Shown here: positions 11,000 through 30,737 of the stretch, in pieces
Numbering within the stretch: the stretch's first letter is position 1
How the letters are laid out: each line of letters starts with the position of its first letter
Sequence record: PP274704.1
Length of the DNA: 64,000 nt
Origin: Escherichia phage ECp13
Reading direction: 5' to 3' (one strand)
Position numbers and translations under genes: made by a program
The notes under the pieces: generated by a model
Told to the model about the DNA's origin: nothing
Database searches by the model: none
The model's input: the letters and a program-made list of their open reading frames with translations, nothing else

Positions 11000-12202
11000 A
11001 TGAAAGTATGCATTTTTATGGCTCGAGGTCTTGAAGGTTGCGGCGTAACTAAATTTTCTCTCGAGCAGCGTGATTGGTTTATTAAAAATGGTCATGAAGT
11101 AACTTTGGTTTATGCTAAAGATAAATCATTTACCCGTAATTGCGCGCATGATTATAAATCATTTTCAATTCCGGTTTTATTGGCAAAAGAATACGATAAA
11201 ACACTTAAGCTGGTAAATGATTGTGATATTCTAATTATCAATTCAGTTCCTGCTACTTCAGTCGAAGAAGACACTATTAATAACTATAAAAAAATTATTG
11301 ATAACATTAAACCTTCAGTTCGTGTTGTAGTTTATCAACATGACCATTCTTCTCTTTCTTTGCGCCGAAATTTGGGATTAGAAGAAACTGTTCGTCGAGC
11401 TGATGTTATTTTTAGTCATTCTGATAATGGCGATTTTAATAAAGTTTTGATGAAAGAATGGTATCCAGAAACAGTTTCTCTGTTTGATGATATTGAAGAA
11501 GCACCGACTGTATACAACTTTCAGCCTCCTATGGATATTGCGAAGGTTCGATCAACCTACTGGAAAGATGTTTCTGAAATTAATATGAATGTCAACCGTT
11601 GGATCGGTCGTACGACTACATGGAAAGGTTTTTATCAGATGTTTGATTTTCACGAAAAACATCTTAAACCTGCGGGATTAAGTACTATTATGGAAGGTCT
11701 GGAACGTTCTCCTGCGTTCATTCCTATTAAAGAAAAAGGAATTCCATACGAATATTATCGTCTTCATCAAGTAGACCAAATTAAAATTGCTCCTAATTTG
11801 CCGACGCAAATTCTCGACCGTTATGTAAATAGCGAAATGCTTGAACGCATGAGTAAATCCGGATTTGGTTATCAGCTGAGTAAGTTGGATAAAAAATATC
11901 TACAACGTTCTTTAGAATATACTCATCTCGAGCTTGGTGCGTGTGGAACAATTCCAGTATTTTGGAAATCTACTGGCGAAAATTTAAAATTCCGTGTTGA
12001 TAATACTCCGTTAATTTCTCATGATAGCGGTATCGTTTGGTTTGATGAAAATGACATGGAATCAACATTTGAGCGTATTAAAGAACTGTCATCTGACCGA
12101 AATCTTTATGACCGTGAACGCGAAAAAGCTTATGAATTTTTGTATCAGCATCAAGATTCAAGCTTCTGCTTTAAAGAACAGTTTGACATTATTACAAAAT
12201 AA
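11000..12202 (+). CDS. a-gt: DNA alpha-glucosyltransferase
   Basis: 400 aa, matches recalled T4 AGT length and N-terminus. Confidence 0.9.
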   Translation: MKVCIFMARGLEGCGVTKFSLEQRDWFIKNGHEVTLVYAKDKSFTRNCAHDYKSFSIPVLLAKEYDKTLKLVNDCDILIINSVPATSVEEDTINNYKKIIDNIKPSVRVVVYQHDHSSLSLRRNLGLEETVRRADVIFSHSDNGDFNKVLMKEWYPETVSLFDDIEEAPTVYNFQPPMDIAKVRSTYWKDVSEINMNVNRWIGRTTTWKGFYQMFDFHEKHLKPAGLSTIMEGLERSPAFIPIKEKGIPYEYYRLHQVDQIKIAPNLPTQILDRYVNSEMLERMSKSGFGYQLSKLDKKYLQRSLEYTHLELGACGTIPVFWKSTGENLKFRVDNTPLISHDSGIVWFDENDMESTFERIKELSSDRNLYDREREKAYEFLYQHQDSSFCFKEQFDIITK

Positions 12203-18931: not shown

Positions 18932-21628
18932 ATGAAAGAATTTTATATCTCTATCGAAACAGTCGGAAATAACATTGTTGAGCGTTATATTGATGAAAAT
19001 GGAAAGGAACGTACTCGTGAAGTAGAATATCTTCCGACTATGTTTAGGCATTGTAAGGAAGAGTCAAAATACAAAGACATTTATGGTAAAAATTGTGCTC
19101 CTCAAAAATTTCCATCAATGAAAGATGCACGAGACTGGATGAAGCGAATGGAAGACATCGGTCTCGAAGCTCTTGGTATGAACGATTTTAAACTCGCTTA
19201 TATCAGTGATACATATGGTTCAGAAATTGTTTATGACCGAAAATTTGTTCGTGTAGCTAACTGTGACATTGAGGTTACTGGCGATAAATTTCCTGACCCA
19301 ATGAAAGCAGAATATGAAATTGATGCTATCACTCATTACGATTCAATTGACGACCGTTTTTACGTCTTTGATTTGTTGAATTCAATGTACGGTTCAGTAT
19401 CAAAATGGGATGCAAAGTTAGCTGCTAAGCTTGACTGTGAAGGTGGTGATGAAGTTCCTCAAGAAATTCTTGACCGAGTAATTTATATGCCATTCGATAA
19501 TGAGCGTGATATGCTCATGGAATATATTAATCTCTGGGAACAGAAACGACCTGCTATTTTTACCGGTTGGAATATTGAGGGATTTGACGTTCCGTATATT
19601 ATGAATCGCGTTAAAATGGTTCTCGGTGAACGCAGTATGAAACGCTTCTCTCCAATCGGTCGAGTAAAATCTAAACTAATTCAAAATATGTACGGTAGCA
19701 AAGAAATTTATTCTATTGATGGCGTATCTATTCTTGATTATTTAGATTTGTACAAGAAATTCGCATTTACTAATTTGCCATCGTTCTCTTTGGAATCAGT
19801 TGCTCAACATGAAACCAAAAAAGGTAAATTGCCGTACGATGGTCCTATTAATAAACTTCGTGAAACTAATCATCAACGATACATTAGTTATAACATCATT
19901 GACGTAGAATCAGTTCAAGCAATTGATAAAATTCGTGGGTTTATCGATCTAGTTTTAAGTATGTCTTATTACGCTAAAATGCCTTTTTCTGGTGTAATGA
20001 GTCCTATTAAAACTTGGGATGCTATTATTTTTAACTCACTGAAAGGTGAACATAAGGTTATTCCTCAACAAGGTTCGCACGTTAAACAGAGTTTTCCAGG
20101 TGCATTTGTGTTTGAACCTAAACCGATTGCTCGTCGATACATTATGAGTTTTGACTTGACGTCTCTGTATCCTAGCATTATTCGTCAGGTTAACATTAGT
20201 CCTGAGACTATTCGCGGGCAGTTTAAAGTTCATCCAATTCATGAATATATCGCAGGAACAGCTCCTAAGCCAAGTGATGAATATTCTTGCTCTCCGAATG
20301 GATGGATGTATGATAAGCACCAAGAAGGTATCATTCCAAAGGAAATCGCTAAAGTATTTTTCCAGCGTAAAGATTGGAAAAAGAAAATGTTCGCGGAAGA
20401 AATGAATGCCGAAGCTATTAAAAAGATTATTATGAAAGGTGCAGGGTCTTGCTCAACTAAACCAGAAGTTGAACGATATGTTAAGTTCAGTGATGATTTC
20501 TTAAACGAATTATCGAATTACACCGAATCTGTTCTTAATAGTCTGATCGAAGAATGTGAAAAAGCAGCTACACTTGCTAACACAAATCAGCTGAACCGTA
20601 AAATTCTTATTAACAGTCTTTATGGTGCTCTTGGTAATATTCATTTCCGTTACTATGATTTGCGAAATGCTACTGCTATCACAATTTTCGGTCAAGTCGG
20701 TATTCAGTGGATTGCTCGCAAAATTAATGAATATCTGAATAAAGTATGTGGAACTAATGGTGAAGATTTCATCGCAGCAGGTGATACTGATTCGGTATAT
20801 GTTTGTGTAGATAAAGTTATTGAAAAAGTAGGTCTTGATCGCTTTAAAGAACAAAATGATTTAGTTGAATTCATGAATCAGTTTGGTAAGAAAAAGATGG
20901 AACCTATGATTGATGTTGCATATCGTGAGTTATGTGATTATATGAATAACCGCGAGCATCTGATGCATATGGACCGTGAAGCTATTTCTTGCCCTCCGCT
21001 TGGTTCAAAGGGTGTTGGTGGATTTTGGAAAGCGAAAAAACGTTATGCTCTGAACGTTTATGATATGGAAGATAAGCGATTTGCCGAACCGCATCTAAAA
21101 ATCATGGGTATGGAAACTCAGCAGAGCTCAACACCAAAAGCAGTACAAGAAGCTCTCGAAGAAAGTATTCGTCGTATTCTTCAGGAAGGCGAAGAGTCTG
21201 TCCAAGAATACTACAAGAACTTTGAGAAAGAATATCGTCAACTTGACTATAAAGTTATTGCTGAAGTAAAAACTGCGAACGATATAGCGAAATATGATGA
21301 TAAAGGTTGGCCAGGATTTAAATGCCCGTTCCATATTCGTGGCGTACTAACTTATCGTCGAGCTGTTAGCGGTTTAGGTGTAGCTCCAATTTTGGATGGA
21401 AATAAGGTAATGGTTCTTCCATTACGTGAAGGAAATCCATTTGGTGATAAGTGCATTGCTTGGCCATCAGGCACAGAACTTCCAAAAGAAATTCGTTCTG
21501 ACGTACTGTCTTGGATTGACTACTCAACTTTGTTCCAAAAATCGTTTGTTAAACCGCTTGCGGGTATGTGTGAATCGGCAGGTATGGACTATGAGGAAAA
21601 AGCTTCGTTAGACTTCCTGTTTGGCTGA
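18932..21628 (+). CDS. 43: DNA polymerase gp43 (family B)
   Basis: 898 aa; exo and pol motifs (DIE, YGDTDS-like). Confidence 0.95.
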   Translation: MKEFYISIETVGNNIVERYIDENGKERTREVEYLPTMFRHCKEESKYKDIYGKNCAPQKFPSMKDARDWMKRMEDIGLEALGMNDFKLAYISDTYGSEIVYDRKFVRVANCDIEVTGDKFPDPMKAEYEIDAITHYDSIDDRFYVFDLLNSMYGSVSKWDAKLAAKLDCEGGDEVPQEILDRVIYMPFDNERDMLMEYINLWEQKRPAIFTGWNIEGFDVPYIMNRVKMVLGERSMKRFSPIGRVKSKLIQNMYGSKEIYSIDGVSILDYLDLYKKFAFTNLPSFSLESVAQHETKKGKLPYDGPINKLRETNHQRYISYNIIDVESVQAIDKIRGFIDLVLSMSYYAKMPFSGVMSPIKTWDAIIFNSLKGEHKVIPQQGSHVKQSFPGAFVFEPKPIARRYIMSFDLTSLYPSIIRQVNISPETIRGQFKVHPIHEYIAGTAPKPSDEYSCSPNGWMYDKHQEGIIPKEIAKVFFQRKDWKKKMFAEEMNAEAIKKIIMKGAGSCSTKPEVERYVKFSDDFLNELSNYTESVLNSLIEECEKAATLANTNQLNRKILINSLYGALGNIHFRYYDLRNATAITIFGQVGIQWIARKINEYLNKVCGTNGEDFIAAGDTDSVYVCVDKVIEKVGLDRFKEQNDLVEFMNQFGKKKMEPMIDVAYRELCDYMNNREHLMHMDREAISCPPLGSKGVGGFWKAKKRYALNVYDMEDKRFAEPHLKIMGMETQQSSTPKAVQEALEESIRRILQEGEESVQEYYKNFEKEYRQLDYKVIAEVKTANDIAKYDDKGWPGFKCPFHIRGVLTYRRAVSGLGVAPILDGNKVMVLPLREGNPFGDKCIAWPSGTELPKEIRSDVLSWIDYSTLFQKSFVKPLAGMCESAGMDYEEKASLDFLFG

Positions 21629-22197: not shown

Positions 22198-22449
22198 ATG
22201 GAAACTTTAGTAGCAGGTTCAATTTTTATGGTTTTAGTTTCATGCGTGTTGGCTATTATTATATACATGCTTCCATGGTTCATCGCCTTGATGCGCGGGT
22301 CAAAATCGACAGTAGGAATCTTTTTCACATCTTTACTGTTTAACTGGTCAATTATTGGTTGGTTTATTACATTTATTTGGTCAATTGCGGGTGAAACTAA
22401 AAAATCTGTGCAGCAAAATCAAGTAATTATCATCAGAGAGAAGGAATGA
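22198..22449 (+). CDS. imm: superinfection immunity protein Imm
   Basis: 83 aa membrane protein; matches recalled T4 Imm. Confidence 0.8.
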   Translation: METLVAGSIFMVLVSCVLAIIIYMLPWFIALMRGSKSTVGIFFTSLLFNWSIIGWFITFIWSIAGETKKSVQQNQVIIIREKE

Positions 22450-22595
22450 AAAGCAAAATTTTAACAGTATTGCTTTTAATCTTGATGATTATAATAAGTA
22501 TATACTATAGCGTAACGGTTCCTTGTATGATTCCAACGCTTATTATAGGGTGGAGTTTATTACTGTTACAAGTTAAATATGAATGTATCAATTGA
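22446..22595 (+). CDS. small membrane peptide, 49 aa
   Basis: ATGA overlap with imm stop; strongly hydrophobic; below ORF-track cutoff. Confidence 0.4.
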   Translation: MKSKILTVLLLILMIIISIYYSVTVPCMIPTLIIGWSLLLLQVKYECIN

Positions 22596-22602
22596 GGTTT
22601 AA

Positions 22603-23343
22603 ATGATTAATGACTCTTTGACAGTTGAAGAAACTCGTCTTCATTTGGGAATTGCGTTAAAGGAAAAAGATTTCGTAATTGATAAAACTGGCGTTAAAAC
22701 TATTGAAATTATTGGCGCATCATTTGTAGCAGATGAACCGTTTATTTTTGGCGCTCTTAATGATGAATACATTCAGCGTGAACTTGAATGGTATAAATCT
22801 AAAAGTTTGTTTGTTAAAGATATTCCGGGTGAAACACCGAAGATTTGGCAACAGGTAGCATCTTCTAAAGGCGAAATTAACTCGAATTATGGTTGGGCCA
22901 TCTGGTCAGAAGATAACTATGCCCAGTATGATATGTGTTTAGCTGAACTTGGTCAAAATCCTGATTCTCGACGTGGTATCATGATTTATACTCGTCCATC
23001 CATGCAGTTTGACTACAATAAAGATGGTATGTCAGATTTCATGTGTACGAATACAGTACAGTACCTGATTCGTGATAAGAAAGTCAATGCAGTAGTAAGC
23101 ATGCGTTCAAATGACGTGGTCTTCGGATTCCGTAATGATTATGCATGGCAAAAATACGTACTAGATAAATTAGTATCTGATTTGAATGCAGGTGATTCAA
23201 CTCGTCAGTATAAAGCAGGTTCCATTATATGGAATGTCGGGAGCCTTCATGTGTATTCCCGTCATTTTTATTTGGTTGACCATTGGTGGAAAACTGGCGA
23301 AACTCATATTGCGAAAAAAGATTATAACGGTGAGTGGAAATGA
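22603..23343 (+). CDS. 42: dCMP hydroxymethylase gp42
   Basis: 246 aa, thymidylate-synthase-like fold motifs. Confidence 0.9.
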   Translation: MINDSLTVEETRLHLGIALKEKDFVIDKTGVKTIEIIGASFVADEPFIFGALNDEYIQRELEWYKSKSLFVKDIPGETPKIWQQVASSKGEINSNYGWAIWSEDNYAQYDMCLAELGQNPDSRRGIMIYTRPSMQFDYNKDGMSDFMCTNTVQYLIRDKKVNAVVSMRSNDVVFGFRNDYAWQKYVLDKLVSDLNAGDSTRQYKAGSIIWNVGSLHVYSRHFYLVDHWWKTGETHIAKKDYNGEWK

Positions 23344-24182
23344 TTCAATTCGTAATTCCAAGCTATCAACGCGTAGGGGCAGTTTCTGCCCTTGATATGT
23401 TTCCGACTGATTATGAACCTCATATTGTAGTACGTGAACACGAAGAAAAAGCTTATTATGACGCTTACGGGTCTAGAGCTAAAATTATAACTATTCCTGA
23501 TGATGTTAATGGAATTGCTGGTACTCGTAAAGCAATTACTGATATGTATGCAGGTCAACGAATTTGGATGATTGATGATGATACTACTATTCGTATGAGT
23601 TCAATGCGAAAGAAAGATGATCGTCGCTGCGTAGATAAAATTAATCAGTTAACTCGTGAACAGTTCTATGAATTGATTCAATACGTTGAAGATGCCATGG
23701 ATTGCGGGTATTATCACGGTCATGCTCGTCTACCTATTTTTAAAATTACTTCATCTTGGGGTAATTATCGTGAAAATTCATATGGATTCACGAATACTTG
23801 GTATGACCTCGGGAAACTTACAACAGAACAAATTGGGTATGGAAAAATTGATTTATGCGAAGATATGTATGCATTTCTCAATTTAATTAATCAAGGTTAT
23901 CCGCATTTGGCCTTGTTCAAATATCTGGTTGTGTCTGGAAAAGCACAGGCTCCTGGCGGATGTAGTTCAATTCGTAGTAATTCAAAACATAATAGAGCTC
24001 TTGAGCAAATCAATAGAGAGTTTCCAGAGCAAGCTCGTTGGAAAACATCGAATATCGAAAAGAGAAAATCGTTGGGTGAAGAAGACGAGCCATTAAAAGT
24101 TCTTCGCATGTGTGTTTCGCGCAAAGAAAAATCAGAAGCATTTCATAAGTTTAATGCTATTCATCCAATAGCAGTTGATTAA
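23340..24182 (+). CDS. glycosyltransferase, not T4 beta-gt; likely T2/T6-type beta-alpha-glucosyltransferase
   Basis: 280 aa, ATGA overlap with gene 42; DxD motif in WMIDDDTTI; does not match recalled T4 BGT sequence. Confidence 0.6.
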   Translation: MIQFVIPSYQRVGAVSALDMFPTDYEPHIVVREHEEKAYYDAYGSRAKIITIPDDVNGIAGTRKAITDMYAGQRIWMIDDDTTIRMSSMRKKDDRRCVDKINQLTREQFYELIQYVEDAMDCGYYHGHARLPIFKITSSWGNYRENSYGFTNTWYDLGKLTTEQIGYGKIDLCEDMYAFLNLINQGYPHLALFKYLVVSGKAQAPGGCSSIRSNSKHNRALEQINREFPEQARWKTSNIEKRKSLGEEDEPLKVLRMCVSRKEKSEAFHKFNAIHPIAVD

Positions 24183-24206
24183 TGCCTAAATTTATTGTGT
24201 TATAAT
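24183..24206 (+). promoter_or_regulatory. possible middle promoter for uvsX (TGCCT MotA-box-like + TATAAT)
   Basis: ATGCCTAAA 18 nt upstream of TATAAT 24201-24206; imperfect MotA box. Confidence 0.3.
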
Positions 24207-24259
24207 TACTCTATCTTTAACCAGTGAGGAAAATATAATGTTGCCTATGGAAAAAATGA

Positions 24260-25441
24260 ATGTCTATTGCAGATTTAAAATCCCGTTTGATTAAAGCTTC
24301 CACTTCTAAAATGACTGCTGAACTGACTACATCTAAATTCTTTAATGAAAAGGATGTAATCCGTACAAAAATTCCAATGCTTAATATCGCTATTTCTGGT
24401 GCGATTGATGGTGGTATGCAGTCTGGTTTAACCATTTTTGCAGGTCCTTCTAAACACTTTAAATCAAATATGTCTTTGACTATGGTTGCGGCGTATTTGA
24501 ACAAATATCCTGACGCGGTATGTCTATTCTATGATAGCGAATTTGGTATTACTCCAGCTTATTTGCGATCCATGGGAGTTGACCCGGAACGAGTAATTCA
24601 TACACCAATCCAGTCAGTTGAACAGCTGAAAATTGATATGGTGAATCAGCTTGAAGCTATTGAGCGTGGTGAAAAAGTTATTGTATTCATCGACTCAATT
24701 GGTAATATGGCTTCTAAGAAAGAAACGGAAGATGCCTTGAATGAAAAATCTGTGGCAGATATGACTCGTGCTAAATCACTGAAGTCATTATTCCGTATTG
24801 TTACTCCTTATTTTAGTATTAAAAACATTCCATGCGTTGCGGTTAACCATACAATTGAAACAATTGAAATGTTTAGTAAAACCGTGATGACAGGTGGTAC
24901 AGGCGTAATGTATTCGGCTGATACCGTATTCATTATCGGTAAGCGCCAGATTAAAGATGGTTCTGATCTTCAGGGGTATCAATTTGTTCTAAATGTAGAA
25001 AAATCTCGTACCGTTAAAGAAAAAAGTAAATTCTTTATTGATGTTAAATTTGACGGTGGTATCGATCCTTATTCTGGATTGTTAGATATGGCTCTTGAAT
25101 TAGGATTTGTGGTAAAACCTAAAAATGGCTGGTATGCTCGTGAATTTCTTGACGAAGAAACCGGCGAGATGATTCGCGAAGAAAAATCTTGGCGTGCAAA
25201 AGATACCAACTGCACTACATTCTGGGGTCCTTTATTTAAGCATCAGCCATTCCGAGACGCTATTAAACGTGCTTATCAGTTAGGTGCTATTGATAGTAAT
25301 GAAATTGTTGAAGCTGAAGTTGATGAATTGATTAACTCAAAGGTTGAAAAATTTAAATCTCCAGAAAGTAAAAGTAAATCAGCAGCTGATTTAGAAACTG
25401 ACCTAGATCAGTTAAGTGATATGGAAGAATTTAATGAATAA
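24260..25441 (+). CDS. uvsX: recombinase UvsX (RecA-like)
   Basis: 393 aa; Walker A GPSKHFKS; matches recalled T4 UvsX. Confidence 0.9.
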   Translation: MSIADLKSRLIKASTSKMTAELTTSKFFNEKDVIRTKIPMLNIAISGAIDGGMQSGLTIFAGPSKHFKSNMSLTMVAAYLNKYPDAVCLFYDSEFGITPAYLRSMGVDPERVIHTPIQSVEQLKIDMVNQLEAIERGEKVIVFIDSIGNMASKKETEDALNEKSVADMTRAKSLKSLFRIVTPYFSIKNIPCVAVNHTIETIEMFSKTVMTGGTGVMYSADTVFIIGKRQIKDGSDLQGYQFVLNVEKSRTVKEKSKFFIDVKFDGGIDPYSGLLDMALELGFVVKPKNGWYAREFLDEETGEMIREEKSWRAKDTNCTTFWGPLFKHQPFRDAIKRAYQLGAIDSNEIVEAEVDELINSKVEKFKSPESKSKSAADLETDLDQLSDMEEFNE

Positions 25442-29633: not shown

Positions 29634-29830
29634 ATTAACCCAACTAAAGCAAATGCTAAATCTACGAATGTATCAAGAGTAATTACTGGAATATTAACGC
29701 CATGAGCAATAGCAATTGGCGATAAAACAAAATTCCAGAGTAAAATTCCTACCATAGCAGAAATAGTAAAAGCTATACGTTTTTTATTACCTTTTATGGC
29801 ATTAACAAGTGCCATTAATTTTTGTACCAT
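29630..29830 (-). CDS. small membrane protein, 66 aa, antisense to flanking genes
   Basis: minus-strand ORF with AGGAGG 4 nt before ATG; two hydrophobic segments; stop overlaps gene 61 stop. Confidence 0.4.
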   Translation of the reverse strand: MVQKLMALVNAIKGNKKRIAFTISAMVGILLWNFVLSPIAIAHGVNIPVITLDTFVDLAFALVGLI

Positions 29831-29843
29831 ATGTCCTCCTTAT

Positions 29844-29867
29844 TGCTTTATATATTTATTGTATAAT
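29844..29867 (+). promoter_or_regulatory. putative middle promoter for gene 56 (MotA box TTGCTTTA + TATAAT)
   Basis: TTGCTTTA 29844-51, TATAAT 29862-67. Confidence 0.4.
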
Positions 29868-29901
29868 TAATCTACTAACCCATGAATTGAAAGGAAAAAT
29901 A

Positions 29902-30419
29902 ATGGCTTACTTTAATGAATGTAGTCAACTGATTGAAGGCGCTGATAAAGCTCAAAATGAATACTGGGATATTCTCGGCGATGAAAAAGACCCGCTGCAG
30001 GTTATGCTTGATATGCAGAAATCTCTGCAGGTTCGTTTAGCTAAAGATAAACCTGAATATAACCGTCATCCTGATGATTTGGCTACTGCAGGTGAAGTTG
30101 TTGATTGGCTGCGTAATCAGAAAGATTATATTGATGATGAATTCCGCGAACTTCTGACTTCTCTTGGTGGTATGAGCAATGGCGAAAAAGATGCATCTGC
30201 TGTATGGAAGCTTGGAAGTCGCAACACGGTGAACGTCGTGAAACTCTGATTACTGACTTATCTCCACAAGACCAGTTGGAAATTAAATTCGAAATGATTG
30301 ATATTCTTCATTTCGTTCTGAACATGTTCCAAGGTCTCGGTCTTACGGCTGAAGAAATCTTTAAACTTTATTATCTGAAAAATGCTGAAAACTTCGCTCG
30401 TCAAGACCGAGGTTATTAA
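29902..30419 (+). pseudogene. 56: dCTPase (dCTP pyrophosphatase, MazG-like) gp56 interrupted by an apparent 1-nt deletion
   Basis: N-terminal 116 codons in one frame (stop 30247-49), C-terminal conserved part in -1 frame from ~30204; joint length ~171 aa as in T4 gp56. Confidence 0.65.
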
Positions 30420-30453
30420 TATAAACGACGGCTTAAAAGCTGTGAGAATTTAT

Positions 30454-30461
30454 TATAAATA
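30454..30461 (+). promoter_or_regulatory. late promoter TATAAATA for soc
   Basis: exact TATAAATA about 30 nt upstream of soc ATG. Confidence 0.7.
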
Positions 30462-30491
30462 GTCATGTAATTTAAATAAAAGGAGAATTAC

Positions 30492-30737
30492 ATGGCTAGT
30501 ACTCGCGGTTATGTTAATATTAAAACATTTGAGCAGAAATTAGATGGAAATAAGAAAATTGAAGGAAAGGAAATTTCTGTAGCTTTCCCTCTTTATTCTG
30601 ACGTTCACAAAATTTCTGGTGCTCATTACCAGACATTCCCTTCAGAAAAAGCAGCATATACTACTGTATACGAAGAAAATCAACGTGATGCATGGATTGC
30701 TGCAAACGAAGATCTGTGGAAAGTAACTGGTGGTTAA
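30492..30737 (+). CDS. soc: small outer capsid protein Soc
   Basis: 81 aa; matches recalled T4 Soc; late promoter upstream. Confidence 0.85.
   Translation: MASTRGYVNIKTFEQKLDGNKKIEGKEISVAFPLYSDVHKISGAHYQTFPSEKAAYTTVYEENQRDAWIAANEDLWKVTGG

Follow-up and report, generated by a model that had tools for sequence, protein, structure and literature searches.

A T2/T6-type glucosyl-DNA beta-glucosyltransferase very probably occupies the slot between gene 42 and uvsX in Escherichia phage ECp13

The gene located between gene 42 and uvsX in phage ECp13 almost certainly encodes a T2/T6-type glucosyl-DNA beta-glucosyltransferase of the Pfam TAGT family (beta-glucosyl-HMC-alpha-glucosyltransferase; gene synonyms ba-gt, ggt and g-gt), an enzyme classified as EC 2.4.1.28. 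It extends over positions 23340-24182 on the plus strand of the 64-kb stretch of DNA that was analysed as a whole (referred to as the window) and specifies 280 aa, followed by a stop codon at 24180-24182. The original prediction, made from the letters of the sequence, had placed a 280-aa ORF carrying the motif WMIDDDTTI between gene 42 and uvsX; its coordinates and length as well as the motif, which corresponds to residues 76-84 (nt 23565-23591), were confirmed.

Results

Genomic context of the ba-gt gene

The window is a Tequatrovirus (T-even) segment, and the 12 kb around the ORF share 97-98% identity with numerous coliphages and phages of Shigella (PBM-1, EPIMAM01, sb3 and pSs-1 amongst them). 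The genes on the plus strand follow the order 43 - imm.1 - imm - 49-aa ORF - 42 - ba-gt ORF - uvsX - 40 - 41. Gene 43 (18932-21628) encodes the DNA polymerase, while gene 42 (22603-23343), which agrees with T4 gene 42 in length and position, encodes the dCMP hydroxymethylase for the hmC precursor (246 aa, thymidylate-synthase family PF00303). The downstream landmark is the recombinase gene uvsX (24260-25441, plus strand; PF21134, E 4.7e-39, plus RecA). In T2 and T6, ba-gt occupies the slot between gene 42 and uvsX just as it does in the window, whereas the T4 slot holds the 351-aa b-gt, as stated in the original prediction, and then the homing endonuclease gene segA. That the TAGT position is syntenic with the T4 beta-GT has been stated before (PMC13390438). 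Further upstream, the window contains an intact alpha-gt gene for the DNA alpha-glucosyltransferase (11000-12202, plus strand; 400 aa), which matches PF11440 over profile positions 1-354 of 355 with an E-value of 1.6e-235.

Between imm and gene 42 lies a hydrophobic 49-aa ORF (22446-22595, plus strand) that shares 4 nt with the 3' end of imm. The T2 annotation lists it as a hypothetical protein (PV648364, 58524-58673), and the corresponding gap of 153 nt in the T4 reference is without any annotation where T2 and the window have this ORF.

The program-made list of ORFs gives the ba-gt frame as 23334..24182 (+) with a GTG start; an ATG two codons later, at 23340, yields exactly 280 aa and matches the start annotated in T2. 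The two genes have the tetranucleotide ATGA (23340-23343) in common, which contains both this ATG and the TGA stop codon of gene 42, and by way of this overlap ba-gt appears to be translationally coupled to gene 42. The spacer upstream of uvsX (24183-24259, plus strand) contains no segA but the elements TGCCTAA and TATAAT separated by 11 nt, an arrangement which, judged by the T4 MotA-box consensus, resembles a T4 middle promoter. A sigma-70 promoter scan of 22400-24400 returned 11 sites, not above the 9.2 seen in shuffled sequences, and did not list the candidate promoter in 24183-24259. The terminator scan of the same region returned two sites against a shuffled expectation of 1.0, again not above it. 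That scan flagged a hairpin inside ba-gt itself (23374-23394, plus strand, codons 12-18), in which a 9-bp stem, TAGGGGCAG-TTT-CTGCCCTTG, is followed by a T-rich stretch.

Homologues of segA, segF and dam were searched for in the 64-kb window and none was found. In T4, segA has b-gt and uvsX as its neighbors, and segF adjoins gene 56, a location that corresponds to 29640-30500 in the window. Two groups of Tequatrovirus isolates that differ in their gentiobiosyl fraction are set apart by whether or not they carry a Dam-like gene (PMC13390438).

Assignment of the protein to the T2/T6-type family

When 50,697 phage records were searched by tblastn, 689 contained a homologue of the ORF protein, and in 685 the match covered 80% or more. 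Identity reaches at least 99% in 177 records and falls between 95 and 99% in a further 294, and a second cluster of homologues at 60-80% identity comprises T4-like phages of Klebsiella, Enterobacter, Salmonella and Citrobacter. Most of the homologue records carry the name beta-glucosyl-HMC-alpha-glucosyltransferase, which is also the name of the matching family PHROG 842 (E 5.6e-89). The Pfam TAGT profile PF20691 is matched with 38.8 bits against a gathering cut-off of 27.5, residues 3-207 of the protein aligning to profile positions 2-205 of 205. Since full-length homologues are found in hundreds of phages and curated family profiles are matched as well, the ORF is not a product of chance.

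The proteins of phages ZCEC15 and UFV05 are 100% identical to the ORF protein, and the differences from the T2 and T6 enzymes are merely allelic. Compared with T2 ba-gt, 276 of the 280 residues are identical (98.6%, in two independent T2 records), and the T2 changes relative to the window protein are R11H, K92R, I101V and P251S. The T6 protein shares 275 of the 280 residues (~98%) and differs by Y40N, D55G, K92R, I101V and R106H, with an additional amber codon in one T6 record. The window thus has R11 and P251 in common with T6 and nearly all other phages, as opposed to H11 and S251 in T2, while its K92 and I101 stand against R92 and V101 in both T2 and T6. Together with the shared length and slot, the intact alpha-gt partner and the PHROG 842 and PF20691 matches, this near-identity bears out the proposal that the gene is of the T2/T6 type.

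By contrast, every comparison with T4 b-gt was negative. BLASTP of the ORF protein against T4 b-gt gave a best E-value of 3.4, which is at noise level, and instead of the high identity to the T4 enzyme that would have spoken against the original prediction, the lack of similarity on which it had relied was thereby upheld. A tblastn search of the whole 64-kb window with T4 b-gt found no such gene (best E 0.7), and the PF09198 profile did not match the ORF protein at E-values up to 1. The alternative that the ORF is a T4 beta-gt orthologue which has diverged strongly within the ancestral slot has nothing but the shared position between gene 42 and uvsX in its favor. We reject it outright, as BLASTP and tblastn detect no similarity, the two proteins belong to different Pfam families (PF20691 versus PF09198) and their folds are of different classes, GT-A versus GT-B (PMC13216743). 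In the structural model described below, the two-domain GT-B fold is replaced by one GT-A-type domain matching GT2 enzymes.

Predicted fold and conserved residues

A search of the PDB sequences with the single ORF protein returned only noise, and no member of the TAGT family has a solved structure. Both the analysis of conservation and the AlphaFold2 model were based on an alignment of 40 homologues collected down to ~20% identity. Residues I6, R11, R63, D79, D80, D81, D175, G186, G206, G207 and R212 are invariant in this alignment, and P7 and Y9 are conserved in at least 90% of its members. The model (pLDDT 92.1, pTM 0.90) consists of a single domain with alternating strands and helices. Its top matches in the PDB according to Foldseek are all GT-A/GT2 proteins, namely AvpGT, WrtF, RmlT, the chondroitin polymerase K4CP, TarP, TarS and SpsA, with E-values of ~1e-6 to 1e-5 and TM scores of ~0.5 at 10-14% identity. 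When the profile of the 40 homologues was used to search the PDB sequences, AvpGT was retrieved as well (E 2.2e-4), in an alignment pairing IPSYkR with IPTYNR and MiDDD with LDDDD.

According to the model, the ORF protein is a small single-domain GT-A enzyme closest to GT2. The TAGT of T6 has previously been modelled as GT-A and placed as a sister to GT2, while alpha-GT and beta-GT are both GT-B enzymes (PMC13216743); our model-based assignment with AlphaFold2 and Foldseek independently reproduces this placement.

Three conserved elements can be assigned putative roles on the basis of the model and of a remote analogy to GT2 enzymes (TM ~0.5, 10-14% identity). The IPSYQR motif (residues 6-11; 23355-23372, plus strand) follows strand beta-1, aligns to IPTYNR of AvpGT and K4CP, and by this analogy may contact the nucleotide or nucleotide sugar. 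The DDD triplet D79-D81 (23574-23582, plus strand), the DxD motif within WMIDDDTTI, is located at the end of the strand formed by residues 74-78 (E74-78) in the model and aligns to DDDD of AvpGT, from which we infer that it would hold a divalent metal ion and the pyrophosphate of UDP-glucose. D175 in the sequence CEDMYAF (23862-23864, plus strand) is the candidate catalytic base and likely acts as the general base of an inverting displacement; in the alignment with AvpGT it falls into a second stretch, not significant on its own, whose match to the ED motif region is weak. An inverting displacement is proposed because a beta-linked product can only be formed from UDP-alpha-glucose with inversion.

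Predicted pathway and expected modification of ECp13 DNA

In the pathway envisaged for ECp13, the gene 42 product would make hm-dCMP and replication would then put hmC into the DNA. The alpha-gt product would add an alpha-linked glucose to give alpha-glucosyl-hmC, the presumed acceptor for ba-gt, which in turn would use UDP-glucose to attach a second, beta-1,6-linked glucose to the alpha-glucose and so generate gentiobiosyl-hmC. This corresponds to the published chemistry of TAGT, in which the second, beta-linked glucose is placed on alpha-glucosyl-hmC (PMC13390438, PMC13216743, PMC11078745, bioRxiv 2026.02.25.707755). In a T6 delta-ba-gt mutant, gentiobiosyl-hmC is lost and alpha-glucosyl-hmC only is left (PMC11078745, bioRxiv 2026.02.25.707755).

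How much of the second glucose is added cannot be read from identity alone, because near-identical enzymes yield a gentiobiosyl-hmC share of ~5% in T2 and ~72% in T6 (PMC13390438, bioRxiv 2026.02.25.707755). HPLC/MS of the DNA of QOTSP, whose protein is 98.9% identical to the ORF protein, revealed about one third hmC and two thirds gentiobiosyl-hmC with a trace of alpha-glucosyl-hmC, while other Tequatrovirus isolates have hmC, gentiobiosyl-hmC and alpha-glucosyl-hmC in a 1:2:2 ratio (PMC13390438). By analogy with these DNA data, and because the window encodes the consensus R11 (codon 11, nt 23370-23372) rather than the T2-specific H11, we would expect ECp13 DNA to have a high, T6-like level of gentiobiosyl-hmC and no beta-glucosyl-hmC.

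The H11 residue of T2 was seen in two independent records (PV648364, AP018813), against an R11 that does not vary in the 40-member alignment. The exact N-terminal 39-mer of T2 is carried by 8 of the 681 matching phage records, seven of them T2 and the remaining one SV76, whose genome equals that of T2 in length, in a scan restricted to exact matches, which H11 records with another nearby change would escape. R11H is a candidate cause of the inverted gentiobiosyl levels of T2 and T6, because R11 is invariant, lies within the putative nucleotide-binding motif IPSYxR and is replaced by histidine in the low-gentiobiosyl phage T2. That this T2-specific substitution is responsible for the inversion, so that the R11 allele of the window would be fully active and the DNA T6-like and mostly diglucosylated, is nonetheless a tentative idea to which we give less than even chances. 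Such a hypomorphic allele would be of interest for the family of genes and would not point to a peculiarity of the window itself.

The T6 records differ from each other close to this site. In MH550421 (minus strand), codon 10 of ggt is a TAG amber codon and the annotated CDS (261 aa) begins at M20, a start that would drop the conserved IPSYxR motif; in AP018814, codon 10 is CAA (Gln).

Two further readings accept the family assignment. The enzyme might be present yet weak or silent, as it apparently is in T2, whose gene is 98.6% identical and whose DNA nevertheless contains only ~5% gentiobiosyl-hmC; ECp13 DNA would in that case be essentially mono-alpha-glucosylated, and the amber at codon 10 in one T6 record illustrates that the function can be lost in laboratory stocks. 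The window ORF, however, is intact and has the consensus residues R11 and P251 in place of the H11 and S251 of T2, the exact H11 N-terminus is confined to the T2 and SV76 records, and natural isolates with near-identical proteins contain 40-67% gentiobiosyl-hmC (PMC13390438), all of which makes a weak or silent enzyme very unlikely. Alternatively, a TAGT-family enzyme could have a different specificity here, whether by glycosylating hmC directly, by employing another sugar nucleotide or by accepting beta-glucosyl-hmC. Diversity within the family would allow for this: TAGT genes can accompany either alpha-GT or beta-GT or stand by themselves, distant members are just 20-30% identical, and substrate discrimination is considered unresolved by the authors of PMC13216743. 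Against it stand the mere five differences from the genetically characterised T6 enzyme, none of which affects an invariant position of the family, the alpha-gt partner and the absence of beta-gt in the window, and the gentiobiosyl-hmC made by phages with 98.9% identical proteins, so that we regard a deviating specificity as extremely improbable. Transfer of a second, beta-linked glucose onto alpha-glucosyl-hmC by an active ba-gt product remains our preferred reading.

An apparent frameshift in gene 56

Gene 56 of the hmC pathway, which encodes a dCTPase/dUTPase (29902-30419, plus strand), is broken in the window by a 1-nt deletion near 30211-30212. tblastn finds the gene in two pieces in different frames, and the ORFs 29902-30249 and 30204-30419 overlap. 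Compared with the nearest relatives EC121 and Sfk20, one C is missing near 30211, which turns AAGCCTTGG into AAGCTTGG and also makes a HindIII site. Exact-match scans of IMG/VR with 29- and 30-mers found neither the frameshifted nor the intact version of the gene and thus carry no weight for either explanation. Established T4 genetics has demonstrated that gp56 is needed to exclude cytosine from T-even DNA. Because gp56 is essential in this respect, the frameshift is probably an error of sequencing or assembly, and a real mutation is the less likely explanation; were it genuine, the glucosyltransferases would act on DNA of altered composition.

Discussion

The ba-gt gene of ECp13 resembles three groups of glycosyltransferases to different degrees. 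With the TAGT family it shares the whole 205-position profile PF20691 above the gathering threshold, the predicted GT-A fold and the invariant DDD. The name TAGT (TET-associated glycosyltransferase) goes back to a genomic association with TET/JBP dioxygenases, which the profile does not require. The family acceptor is a hydroxyl on the base, whereas T-even ba-gt acts on a sugar already attached to the base; likewise, in TET-associated TAGT systems a TET/JBP dioxygenase acts on the DNA, whereas T-even hmC is made through gene 42 before replication. T4 b-gt (GT63, PF09198) has the genomic slot, the use of UDP-glucose, the beta linkage and the hmC DNA target in common with ba-gt, but is unrelated in sequence and is a GT-B enzyme of 351 aa as compared to a GT-A enzyme of 280 aa according to our model. 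Moreover, the acceptor of T4 b-gt is the hydroxymethyl group of hmC, that of ba-gt the 6-OH of the alpha-glucose, and segA follows b-gt in T4 but is missing behind the window ba-gt. The bacterial GT2 enzymes with a GT-A fold (AvpGT, TarP/TarS, SpsA, K4CP and WrtF) are the best structural neighbors and have a similar N-terminal IP(S/T)Y(N/x)R motif and a DxD motif, yet at TM ~0.5 and 10-14% identity they are remote, and their acceptors are glycans, teichoic acids and small molecules rather than DNA.

In phages that encode such glucosyltransferases, alpha-GT or beta-GT is usually combined with TAGT, while alpha-GT together with beta-GT occurs in only 6 of 753 genomes, those of T4 and its close relatives (PMC13216743). 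The combination of alpha-GT with TAGT is thus common, and the alpha-gt and beta-gt pairing of T4 is the rare arrangement that makes T4 the odd one. Most T4-like coliphages have ba-gt at this position and not the T4 beta-gt, and the gene identified in the window, although correctly recognised, is an ordinary one. Its position, family, fold class and knockout phenotype have already been published, as has the gene itself, and no new biology is claimed here.

The original prediction also held that a second glucose would alter the sensitivity to modification-dependent restriction, and suggested GmrSD-type hosts as a test. The literature sustains the former point for two other defences. The alpha-glucosyl-hmC glycosylase Brig1 spares gentiobiosyl-hmC DNA, and T6 delta-ba-gt is more sensitive to Brig1 (PMC11078745); the deglucosylating enzyme BapA can act on T6 DNA only once g-gt has been removed (bioRxiv 2026.02.25.707755). 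The second glucose therefore protects against Brig1 and BapA. GmrSD, on the other hand, attacks alpha-glucosyl-, beta-glucosyl- and gentiobiosyl-hmC alike (PMC13216743), which makes it a less clear discriminator.

For annotation, the value of the assignment is that the phage can be labelled a T6/T2-type modifier (alpha-gt and TAGT) and not a T4-type one (alpha-gt and beta-gt). Beyond this, it is ba-gt that decides whether hmC in a T-even phage is mono- or di-glucosylated, the latter in the form of gentiobiosyl-hmC, and hence which host defences can act.
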